A stretch of 64,000 nucleotides of DNA from a virus (lineage: Duplodnaviria > Caudoviricetes), in IMG/VR virus record IMGVR_UViG_3300037067_011041, positions 32,001 to 96,000 of that record; one strand, 5' to 3'. Positions 6,603 through 57,871 of the stretch are shown one piece after another. A program made the translations under genes and the position numbers. The first letter of the stretch is position 1. Each line of letters opens with the position of its first letter. Below the pieces are notes generated by a model, which saw only the letters and a program-made list of their open reading frames with translations, was not told the origin of the DNA and ran no database searches.

Positions 6603-7420
6603 GATTGATCCTCTTGCGGCAGTGTGGCGCCGTCAACAAGGGCCTGAACAATGTCGTTAATTCGATCTCGCAGTTCATTGTCTTGCGGCATGCTCAAGAG
6701 ATAGAATTGAACATTGTTCTCGGGGACGATGATCTCTTCGATGTACACGTCTCCTTCCCCATCGGCCGGGACGATCGGGAGCCCGAAAATCTCTCCACAG
6801 TCGGGGCACTCAAAGCCCCCGTCTTCCAGCGAAATGCAATTCGTCTCATCGCATTGTGGGCATACCAACAGGTCAAAGACATGCCCGCATTCGCACTCTT
6901 TTCCAAAGTCGGTTTCCCATACGATTTCCGAGCCACATAGCGGGCAGTGGGTATCTTTGAGCAGGGGCACTGGCGTAGATTGGAATTCGATTGTCATCGA
7001 ATCAACGTCGGCTAGTTTCGCTCCGTTGACATAGATCTCGCCAACAGGTTCCAGTTTGGCTTCCCGCTTGGCCTTCTCGGCCGCCCAGTATGCCATGCGA
7101 GCGTAGAACACTTCCTTGTCGATGAGCGGGCCAGTGGTGTTCAGTTCCATCCAGGCACACAGGTTCCAGATGGCGTGCCCGAGATGATGGCAGCCAGAGT
7201 CCTGGTCGTATACCTCTCCGCCCAGATAATAGTCAAGGTGACGGCACATGGAATCGAGGTATTCCTCGTCGGGCTTGCCTCCTTTCTTCCAGTTTCCTTC
7301 GTTGTACTTGTTGGCGCCGAACTCTTTCACTCGGGCCACGGCCTCAAGGGCTCGACGGAAACTTCGCATGAAATATCCAAGCTTCGGTTTGCCTTCATTG
7401 AATCGCAATGCGCCGCTCAT
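6599..7420 (-). CDS. dATP/dGTP diphosphohydrolase-domain (DUF5664) protein with C-terminal zinc ribbons
   Basis: GKPKL...VKEFGANKY..GNW...RHL...DSGCHHLGHAIWN; CPLC, CEC, CPQC, CPDC. Confidence 0.85.
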   Translation of the reverse strand: MSGALRFNEGKPKLGYFMRSFRRALEAVARVKEFGANKYNEGNWKKGGKPDEEYLDSMCRHLDYYLGGEVYDQDSGCHHLGHAIWNLCAWMELNTTGPLIDKEVFYARMAYWAAEKAKREAKLEPVGEIYVNGAKLADVDSMTIEFQSTPVPLLKDTHCPLCGSEIVWETDFGKECECGHVFDLLVCPQCDETNCISLEDGGFECPDCGEIFGLPIVPADGEGDVYIEEIIVPENNVQFYLLSMPQDNELRDRINDIVQALVDGATLPQEDQS

Positions 7421-28477: not shown

Positions 28478-28783
28478 ATGCGTAACCCAACGGAGACGAA
28501 GACGGAGACGAACATGAACGAAAACAACCGAAGAACACTCAGGGCTCTCTTGGATATCCTAAGCGATGCCCACTTGGCAATCACTGAGCAAGGGGCCAGC
28601 GTCAATGGTGCGTTCCTCAAGTTGGATGAGAGTATCGAAGCTTCGATCGGCGTCGCTATTTATGCCAAGCGACCAAGCAGCCAAATCGATACCCTCATTG
28701 CTCTCCTGCAAGAGCAGGCACAGCGGTGCATCCGGATCGCCGAGGAACTGGAAACAGTGAAAAATAATGTGAAAGTCCCTTGA
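28478..28783 (+). CDS. Hypothetical protein
   Basis: Start placed by promoter; ends in next promoter. Confidence 0.55.
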   Translation: MRNPTETKTETNMNENNRRTLRALLDILSDAHLAITEQGASVNGAFLKLDESIEASIGVAIYAKRPSSQIDTLIALLQEQAQRCIRIAEELETVKNNVKVP

Positions 28784-29789: not shown

Positions 29790-29861
29790 AGTGGACGGGA
29801 GGCAAGGCGTCTTGCGGGCCTCATAAGCCCGTAGAGGTGGGTTCGATTCCCACGTCCACAA
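29790..29861 (+). tRNA. tRNA-Met(CAT), initiator-like
   Basis: Anticodon CGGGC-CTCATAA-GCCCG; T arm GTGGG-TTCGATT-CCCAC; 1:72 mismatch and A11:U24. Confidence 0.8.
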
Positions 29862-29863
29862 CT

Positions 29864-35012: not shown

Positions 35013-35051
35013 CGTAGTCTCGCTGTGGGCGACAGTCGTCGCCCGCAGTCT

Positions 35052-35137
35052 GGGTTGTGTCCCTCACGGCGGACTGTAAATCCGTTGTCATTAACTAGTG
35101 AGGTGGCTGACAAGAGGTTCAATTCCTTCACAACCCA
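35052..35137 (+). tRNA. Non-canonical tRNA-Tyr(GTA): 8/4 fold, no D stem, long variable arm
   Basis: GGGTTGTG/CACAACCC + A73; anticodon GCGGA-CTGTAAA-TCCGT; T arm GAGG-TTCAATT-CCTT; variable stem TGTCA/TGACA. Confidence 0.75.
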
Positions 35138-56179: not shown

Positions 56180-56277
56180 TGGAGGTGTCCGGAGTCGAAC
56201 CGGAATCCTAGCCGTACTCGCTACTTACACATGGGCCTTTTCGCTCAAACGCACGGTAGTCGAAACCTGTCACCCCC
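56180..56277 (-). ncRNA. Minimal tmRNA-like RNA (tRNA-like domain only, 98 nt)
   Basis: 5' GGGGGTGACAGGTTTCGAC; 3' TCCGG-TTCGACT-CCGGA-CACCTCC-A; G3:U70; P2-like helix. Confidence 0.8.
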
Positions 56278-57871
56278 GGCTACTCTCTGATTCGTTATTT
56301 TCGTCCCAGTTGACGTCTTCCCAGAGACAGACATCATCTTTGCTGCCTGATTGGCACATGTCTTCGAGCAACTTGTGCTTGAAGATAGTGATGTAGATCG
56401 TGTACCTGCTGCATTCTGAGGCTACACAGTTATCCTTGAAGTCTTCTGGCAGGCTTAGTTGAATCTCGTTGAATCCAATCCAGATCGATTGGACGCCCTC
56501 ATCAGTTGCTCCGCCGTAAGCCGACACCGGCTTGTTCTTCGTTCGCATGTTCACGTGAAGCACGATGACGTTTTCGTCCCGGCACAGAAGACAGATGTCT
56601 TCAATGTGCCGCCGCTCGTCATGGTACTTCACGTTGATACCGACACTATTGATGGTGTATCCTCGGTATGTTACGGGCTCGTTGTACATCAGTCTTTCCT
56701 GCCGCTCTTAATCAGCTTCTCTGCGAAGTCGGACAGGTCCAAAAGGCAGTTGTACACTTCGTGGTAACCGCCAGAGTGCCCTTGTTCCCATGCATAACAC
56801 TGGAGAGTAAGGATGCCCTCCGCATCGAGAAACTCGTCATAGCCGATGTCTTCGCGACAATCTGCCCAAAACTTGGCCTCCAGCCTGTGTTCTTCCTCAT
56901 TGTAAGGCTTGACGGCTTCTTTGAACCAGTCGCGTACACGGGCCGGCACCGCCGCCAGCAGATCTTCACGCTCTTGGCCGGTAAGCCGCTGACTGTTGAT
57001 ATAGTCTATCAAACCGGCTTTGTACGCGACGCGGTCCGGATATGGAACGTTGTTTTTGTAGTCGTCGAAGTTCATTTCGTTTTCCTGTTCACTCGCTCTC
57101 TGATAGGCCGCATTGCCTCGTGCAGGCATGCCATGTGATACACCTTGGCATTCCCGCTGGCTTTGATTGGCTTCTTACAGATGGGACACTTGGTCATTTT
57201 CATCACAGTAGAATCGTGGTGCTGATTCCGATGGCGGCCAACATCTCCGCTTCTTCTTTAAGTGTAGCACACGGTTTGCATTTGTCAAGCCAATCCGGCC
57301 CGATTTCTTTACAAAGCATGTCATACCAAGTTGAACCGGCATCAAACCGTTCGCCGTCAGATGGCCGGAACATTGCATGGTGTCCATCGCCGTCGGCCGG
57401 GTTCCACCCAGTCAGAAGCACCTTCCTGCCATCTTCCCTGGTGTACAAACGGCACAAAGTGACAAGGGTCCGATGCCGCCTGTACTTGTCATCCTCATTG
57501 TGGATGGCGGTGACGACGAAGTACGGGATGGCGTTGTCCACGTGGTCGAAGTGACTTGACGACTTGCTGTTGGCTCTCTGGACGAATGCCAACCACGGGT
57601 CACCGGGCTGGATGTCGTAGCTGTATCGCTCCCCAGGCACAACGACGATGTCGCCAACCTTGATGCGAGTCTCATACGGCTGGTCTCGGCAAGCCTCAGC
57701 CTCTTCCAGCGTGTCATACGACTTACCACAAACAGGGCAGGAATATCTGATAGGCTGATCTTGGCTGATGAGTTTCGCCGCGTCTTTGCCGTATGCGTAC
57801 CTCTTGGTCTTCCAGCTTCCTTCCTTGTAGATCTGGCATTCTTTGACGATTTTGGCGATATTGATGTCCAT
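56270..57871 (-). other. Hypothetical CDSs (56270-56689, 56689-about 57075, 57203-57871)
   Basis: Coupled ORFs. Confidence 0.55.

Follow-up and report, generated by a model that had tools for sequence, protein, structure and literature searches.

Trans-translation is the main bacterial ribosome-rescue and quality-control pathway, and a phage RNA that reproduces only the part of tmRNA bound by SmpB and AlaRS would be a compact natural candidate for an inhibitor or re-programmer of that pathway. The locus studied here raises the question of whether a 98-nt stretch of a phage genome encodes such an RNA and, if so, what the RNA would do in an infected cell. The window, by which we mean the whole 64,000-nt stretch of DNA that was analyzed, comprises bases 32001 to 96000 of a 117,327-bp IMG/VR record from an uncultured phage that is rated 100% complete. 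A first-pass annotation of the window described the 98 nt as a mini-tmRNA in which the tRNA-like domain is complete and the mRNA-like domain all but absent. It recommended the Rfam tmRNA model, ARAGORN and covariation across related phages as checks, and it named as an alternative that homologs might reveal a decayed fragment lacking compensatory changes.

The minus strand of the window from position 56277 to position 56180 is a gene for a tmRNA tRNA-like domain, as identified by a match to the Rfam tmRNA model RF00023 that spans the RNA from end to end (model positions 1 to 374). The match scores 49.3 bits against a gathering cutoff of 47, with an E value of 1.9e-16 in the window and 8.2e-20 in the genome, and its alignment places 46 nt of the window RNA where the model has 318 positions. 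The same search of the whole genome returned the window RNA as its only tmRNA match. The Rfam model thus bears out the first-pass description of the locus. ARAGORN, run on both the window and the genome, made no call at 56180 to 56277.

In the numbering of the RNA, position p lies at 56277-(p-1) of the window, and all of its elements lie on the minus strand. It runs from the 5' G1 at 56277 to the discriminator A (A73) at 56180; CCA is not encoded, and CUG follows directly after 56180. The 5' strand of the acceptor stem, GGGGGUG (56271 to 56277), forms seven of seven pairs with the 3' strand, CACCUCC (56187 to 56181), the alanine identity pair G3:U70 included. The acceptor strand continues into the stemless D-loop analogue ACAGGUUUCGA (56260 to 56270), which aligns to the Rfam consensus GAucuGGaUUCGAC and represents the SmpB-contact side of the tRNA-like domain; within it, ACAGGUUUCGAC has the GG.UUCGAC form of a stemless D-loop. 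The junction consists of C19:G70 plus GGAU. In the P2a helix, C-UACCGUGC (56251 to 56259, with UACCGUGC itself at 56258 to 56251) pairs with GUACGG(C)UA-G (56217 to 56208, with GUACGG(C)UA at 56217 to 56209), which gives 8 bp plus the C:G pair and a single bulged C. This helix encloses an internal loop of 33 nt (56218 to 56250). The T arm, UCCGG-UUCGACU-CCGGA (56188 to 56204), has a 5-bp stem and a loop that fits UUCGAnU, and it is covered by the RF00023 match. The stemless D-loop, the acceptor with G3:U70 and A73, the T arm and the P2-like helix around 33 nt had all been read from the letters in the first-pass annotation, and each was found in place.

Two components of a full tmRNA are absent from the window RNA. 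One is the reading frame for the tag, which would begin at a resume codon and close with a stop in frame and in whose place there are 3-codon micro-frames only; the other is the pseudoknot ring PK1 to PK4 together with the long helix 2. The whole RNA has a folding z-score of -0.39. Its free fold (-29.8 kcal/mol) and the fold in which P2a is enforced (-29.7 kcal/mol) are isoenergetic, so the support for P2a comes from family homology and not from energy.

By its sequence features, the window RNA is a phage tag-less mini-tmRNA that consists of the tRNA-like domain only and is of the DS6A type. An entry "Mycobacterium phage DS6A (TLD only)" appears in the list of Hudson, Lau and Williams, with a sequence that holds little beyond the tRNA-like domain (PMC4131195), and the tmRNA database says the same in its 2025 update (PMC11915505). 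The kind is therefore already published, and the first-pass annotation was right to recall that short RNAs of this sort had been noted in phages. The DS6A RNA (tmRNA Website tmID 11587) and the window RNA share the G3:U70 acceptor, the stemless D-loop analogue, a short P2a and the T arm; both are phage-borne, and both are without a tag frame and pseudoknots. The DS6A RNA, however, is 80 nt long with AAAA and a small inner hairpin, whereas the window RNA is 98 nt long with an open 33-nt loop that contains a 17-nt island. The DS6A RNA also lies in an intergenic gap, whereas the window RNA holds the stop codon of the upstream ORF, and the two phages are unrelated. The window RNA is a modest structural variant of the published kind, and what it adds is a long-loop form with a conserved island and an RNA whose production would destroy the stop codon of its neighbor. 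In GenBank, the DS6A RNA is unannotated and lies between gp33 and gp34 (DNA pol III) at 28478 to 28557 of JN698994 (L078:1979-2058).

Canonical one-piece tmRNA (ssrA) has the same tRNA-like domain, GAC...GGA junction, helix 2 start and GCGAAA motif as the window RNA. Compared with it, the window RNA is short of about 270 to 300 nt, which comprise the rest of helix 2, PK1 to PK4, the resume codon and the tag frame. Mycobacterium phage Kumao carries a full-length tmRNA of 407 nt. tmRNAs without a coding sequence are described from jakobid mitochondria and, as genes of about 65 bp, from the plastids of Mallomonadaceae (PMC11915505). Like the window RNA, these organellar forms have little beyond the tRNA-like domain, and they are presumed to act with SmpB. 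They differ in that they co-occur with a nucleus-encoded SmpB and replace a full tmRNA, whereas the phage RNA would coexist with the intact tmRNA of the host and probably work against it.

Three pattern scans of viral contigs recovered, besides the window RNA, 36 distinct mini-tmRNAs of 59 to 115 nt from 48 loci. Acceptor pairing is 7/7 in all 37 distinct members, after the 5' ends of seven were moved one base upstream. The covariance model R1, built from 22 members of 74 to 81 nt, recovers every family member. The window RNA scores lowest among the true members (50.3 bits; E value of 2.5e-8; model positions 1 to 79), and the DS6A RNA, which was outside the training set, scores 54.9 bits. Because the MAFFT alignments A1 to A3 assigned the difference in D-loop length to column 1 and displaced some acceptor stems, base pairs were counted in the model-based alignment A4. 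In A4, which is fitted to the structure and leans toward it, standard pairs fill 96.1% of the cells, compared with 42 to 57% when the 3' partners are slid by 1 to 3 columns, and 17 of the 23 pairs show changes on both sides. Compensatory change is found in all eight pairs of P2a (helix 2) and in three of the five T-stem pairs, where pairing is 100%, and acceptor positions 5 to 7 also covary. None of 500 shuffles reached the observed values.

Because the search patterns dictated positions 1 to 4, CUCCA and a portion of the T arm, these carry no weight in this comparison; no such constraint lay on the variable positions, from which the covariation comes. The D-loop GG and UUCGAC are invariant in alignment A1, in part since the search pattern demanded them. 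The pattern of paired change indicates that the mini-tmRNAs are a selected, structured RNA family and not a set of decayed fragments, and the covariation check thus came out on the side of the first-pass annotation. The window copy has no close relatives in the searched collections, and selection is accordingly established for the family and not for the window locus. ARAGORN calls none of the 37 members, so phage tmRNA counts that are based on ARAGORN cannot include mini-tmRNAs. One such survey reports full tmRNAs only, in 402 of 18,146 genomes (PMC9004378). Mini-tmRNAs are, in effect, invisible to standard annotation.

The search for relatives among named phages gave a candidate that was rejected. 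A blastn search with the window RNA returned T-arm matches only, among them an unannotated T-arm-like match in Streptomyces phage Annadreamy and its relatives (L080:1201-1222; NC_048719 66147 to 66168). This match sits in a tRNA array, between tRNA-Ile and tRNA-Ser, and R1 does not support a mini-tmRNA there.

The window RNA departs from the rest of the family in its internal loop. In the usual form of 74 to 82 nt, P2a is followed by AAAG, which is an A-rich junction, and then by a hairpin of 3 bp whose loop is of the CAUGU type, and in other long members the inner hairpin is lengthened to 8 to 10 bp or a second hairpin is added. The 33-nt loop of the window RNA replaces AAAG and the 3-bp hairpin, and it is nearly unstructured (-2.5 kcal/mol when folded alone). 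The 5' half of the inner segment (GAAAAGGCCCAUG; GAAAAGGCCCAUGUG) is kept, and its 3' partner is absent; the window copy is a variant within the family because it lacks the inner hairpin.

Within the loop lies a 17-nt island, GAGCGAAAAGGCCCAUG (56230 to 56246, minus strand), which contains the junction motif GCGAAA of the tmRNA type. A version of this island, GAGCGAAA(A)GGCCCAUG, that is one A shorter is found in just one other RNA, the 115-nt member L044:6873-6987 (from the same contig as L077), and GGCCCAUG begins at RNA position 41 in both. The P2a helices of the two RNAs are entirely different, and no shared protein was detected between the window phage and the roughly 14 kb of the L044 contig around the RNA. 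GCGAAA is the Rfam consensus after helix 2a in canonical tmRNA, and we infer that the island and the helix 2a/2b junction of tmRNA share a common origin. Two scans of viral contigs, one of genome contigs and one of metagenomes revealed no island carrier besides L044. The viral-contig scans for the loop motif returned coding-sequence false positives and L044 in one case, and L044, L081 and the ordinary 79-nt member L082 in the other; the metagenome scan returned L077 and false positives. The genome-contig scan, which returned two false positives, demanded TTTCGAC and would therefore pass over a host tmRNA in which ATTCGAC or CTTCGAC precedes the motif. The L081 element (7040 to 7075, plus strand) has a T arm, GAGGG-UUCGAAU-CCCUC, followed by CCUCUCCG-CCA, and no 5' half of a tRNA-like domain is recognizable nearby; it may be a 3' fragment of a tRNA or tmRNA, an attachment site or a permuted gene.

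The first-pass annotation also pointed to two micro-frames in the loop, GCC CAU GUG UAA and AUG UGU AAG UAG. Both are present, but they are not conserved. The GCC frame (AHV-stop) is closed in the window RNA and open to the end of the L044 RNA. In both RNAs a UAG ends the AUG frame, which reads MCK-stop in the window RNA and MQKLSLSIW-stop in L044; this is weak evidence because there are two sequences only and the frames are very short. Matches of the loop elsewhere in the phage genome, sought as possible antisense targets, are of 10 to 11 nt only, as expected by chance.

The mini-tmRNA sits in a block of small minus-strand genes without assigned function. The upstream gene, P0001 (56270 to 56689, minus strand), encodes 139 aa and has coding-like codon usage, with 0.30 bits per codon in frame and -0.41 and -0.65 bits out of frame. 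Its product has several cysteines and gives a sub-threshold match to the GATA-like zinc finger PF17980 (E value of 0.006; 16.9 bits against a cutoff of 26). The downstream gene, P0002 (55872 to 56168, minus strand), encodes a 98-aa protein that matches family phrog_15407, and its ribosome-binding site, GGAGAG, starts 3 nt past the mini-tmRNA. The mini-tmRNA fills almost the whole 101-nt gap between the two genes. Relatives of P0001 were not found in viral contigs, nor were relatives of P0002. Neither a sigma-70-like promoter nor an intrinsic terminator adjoins the mini-tmRNA on its own strand, and the nearest promoter-like site lies about 1 kb upstream, at 57288. The RNA would presumably be made as part of an operon transcript of the small minus-strand genes and then cut out.

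The TGA stop codon of P0001 occupies RNA positions 6 to 8 (56272 to 56270) and therefore lies inside the mini-tmRNA. An RNase P cut 5' of G56277 would leave a P0001 mRNA that ends in ...AGU AGC C, so that the TGA would be lost and the message would be non-stop. Every matured RNA would thus leave a non-stop P0001 mRNA behind, which offers a simple handle, namely, whether P0001 is tagged or spared. An ORF of at least 40 aa that ends on a TGA at RNA positions 6 to 8 is found in 5 of the 37 family members; the overlap is occasional, and we rejected it as a defining trait of the family. A comparable arrangement is described in Carsonella ruddii, in which smpB runs into ssrA and maturation would make the smpB mRNA non-stop (from a passage of PMC4131195 that cites Mao 2009). 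In both cases the end of a protein gene overlaps the start of the tmRNA, but in Carsonella the overlapping gene is smpB and the RNA a full tmRNA, whereas in the window the gene is P0001 and the RNA is tag-less.

The phage genome has a GC content of 52.8% and encodes a primase, a helicase, an exonuclease, a family-A-like DNA polymerase, a ligase and a ParB-like protein. Named phages include nothing close to it. A blastn search with 1.3 kb around the locus gave no match among named phages, a tblastn search with a 1024-aa ORF gave no match, and the DNA polymerase finds its matches, at about 23% identity, scattered among phages of Thermus, Bacillus, Enterococcus, Maribacter and Microbacterium. The genome has three tRNA genes (Asn, Met and Leu), all without encoded CCA, which fits the addition of CCA by the host after transcription. 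Two tRNA-like stretches of the window stand out on the plus strand. At 29790 to 29862, ARAGORN calls a tRNA-Met (CAU) in which A1 and A72 are mismatched and the D-arm region is unusual; it gives no Rfam tRNA match even at an E value of 0.1. At 35051 to 35137, there is a weak Rfam tRNA-Sec match (29.8 bits, below the cutoff of 47; E value of 0.076) without an ARAGORN call.

What, then, would the window RNA do? Our preferred answer, to which we assign a probability of roughly 0.55 from sequence and from analogy with published tmRNAs, is that it would be an alanyl-charged competitor for host SmpB and EF-Tu that suppresses host tagging. Transcription of the small-gene operon on the minus strand would produce the mini-tmRNA, RNase P would cut its 5' end, and host enzymes would trim its 3' end and add CCA. 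Host AlaRS would then charge it with alanine via G3:U70 and A73, and the charged RNA would bind host SmpB and EF-Tu. It would vie with full-length host tmRNA both for SmpB and for the ribosomes that stall on messages lacking a stop codon, and proteins made during infection would therefore escape the ssrA degradation tag as host trans-translation is damped. As a side effect, excision of the RNA would strip P0001 of its stop codon and so create a non-stop substrate beside the decoy.

Published work on tmRNA is in keeping with this sequence of events. For SmpB binding, the crucial part of tmRNA is its tRNA-like domain, and the alanylated domain together with SmpB mimics an aminoacyl-tRNA in an empty A site (PMC3022190); the parts described there for this mimicry are all kept in the window RNA. 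SmpB, an ArfB-type RF-1 domain and Pth were searched for in the complete phage genome, and none was found, so the RNA must use host factors. In an E. coli experiment outside phage infection, a molecule similar to the DS6A RNA strongly inhibited tmRNA whether it could be charged or not, perhaps because it titrated SmpB (according to a passage of PMC4131195 that cites Mao et al. 2009, and to PMC11915505). Three features of the window copy run counter to competition for SmpB, namely, the lowest R1 score of the family, the missing inner hairpin and a P2a helix that is isoenergetic with the free fold. A block on ribosome rescue, as opposed to its enhancement, also brings a phage no obvious gain.

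The same structural evidence (RF00023, R1 and covariation) would hold equally for productive rescue without a tag, a possible but unlikely reading in which the alanylated mini-tmRNA enters stalled ribosomes with SmpB and accepts the nascent chain. Release would then fall to host ArfB, to Pth after drop-off or to another round of rescue, with no degradation mark left on the product, a completion that we likewise regard as doubtful. Such rescue differs from the action of a competitor only in the events after peptidyl transfer. The jakobid and roughly 65-bp plastid tmRNAs without a coding sequence are thought still to be helpful with incomplete mRNAs (PMC11915505), and maturation itself makes a non-stop P0001 mRNA, which a tag-less rescuer would spare. 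The RNA, however, has no stop codon or template with which to end translation, the phage has no ArfB-type release factor or Pth and a self-contained pathway is unsupported, and the sole experimental report cited in the relevant passage of PMC4131195 is one of inhibition by chargeable and unchargeable molecules alike. Both functions had been put forward in the first-pass annotation and are still the leading candidates, and of the two the literature favors the competitor. The tRNA-like shape could also serve something other than trans-translation, as a decoy for host defense proteins that detect or cleave tRNA-like or tmRNA-like RNAs or as an RNase P-dependent signal that uncouples the flanking genes, which we consider quite improbable. 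SmpB-like OB-fold domains do occur in predicted RNA-targeting restriction systems such as CoCoNuT (PMC10542128), the RNA is placed precisely between two genes and shares bases with the stop codon of the upstream one, and the 17-nt island is without an explanation. But no recognizable defense-related or partner gene adjoins the mini-tmRNA, and if the RNA were just a signal for processing, there would be no need for G3:U70, A73 and the motifs on the SmpB side, all kept across the family.

Two further readings concern how the locus arose and what its loop is for. The RNA may be a nonfunctional remnant, either a decaying, internally deleted copy of a captured ssrA or an attachment-site fragment that integration into a host tmRNA gene left behind, although this is highly improbable. 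Phages that integrate into ssrA do carry pieces of it (PMC10865867 and PMC9004378), and the window copy has no inner hairpin, the lowest R1 score and no close relatives that show purifying selection. An attP site would contain the 3' part only, however, whereas the window RNA has both halves, perfectly paired, and the complete genome contains no match to tyrosine integrase (PF00589) or serine recombinase (PF00239); these observations speak against an attP fragment of ssrA. Decay of any kind is also at odds with 21 of 21 helix pairs and the loop consensus motifs being intact, with an RNA that nearly fills the intergenic gap of a compact genome, and with a family that covaries. The 33-nt loop might be a vestigial mRNA-like domain in which a micro-frame is read to add a non-degron tail of three or four residues, a reading to which we give hardly any credence. 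The long-loop form in the window and in L044 would then be the smallest RNA capable of a complete trans-translation cycle, with its island in or near the decoding center, a prospect that is just as remote; if true, it would combine an island at a fixed distance from the tRNA-like domain and normal termination, coupled to a non-stop P0001 mRNA. The loop is nearly unstructured, unlike that of other long members, the island is conserved with GGCCCAUG at the same RNA position in two unrelated phages, the AUG frame ends at UAG in both, and full-size tmRNAs with tags of two residues are reported (PMC11915505). Against a messenger role, the L044 RNA contains no stop codon in the GCC frame, translation of a tag does not usually resume at AUG, and there are two sequences only. 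There is also no pseudoknot or long helix 2 to set the loop in the mRNA channel, which a closed 33-nt loop could hardly thread, and the 74- to 82-nt majority of the family is without such a loop. A charged competitor for host SmpB and EF-Tu remains our preferred reading of the window RNA.

Two other members of the family have neighbors of their own. About 500 nt downstream of a 79-nt mini-tmRNA, and in a tRNA cluster, lies a second G3:U70 tRNA-like RNA (L023:4049-4116, plus strand) with the acceptor GGGGAAU/AUUCUCC, a T arm and one central hairpin; it has no tmRNA D-loop motif and scores 32.5 bits with R1. A 6.7-kb viral contig that carries an 86-nt mini-tmRNA also carries a HEARO RNA (RF02033; 170.6 bits; L002:794-1003, plus strand). 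The mini-tmRNA on that contig is 89 nt long with its encoded CCA and lies directly 3' of a terminator-like hairpin.
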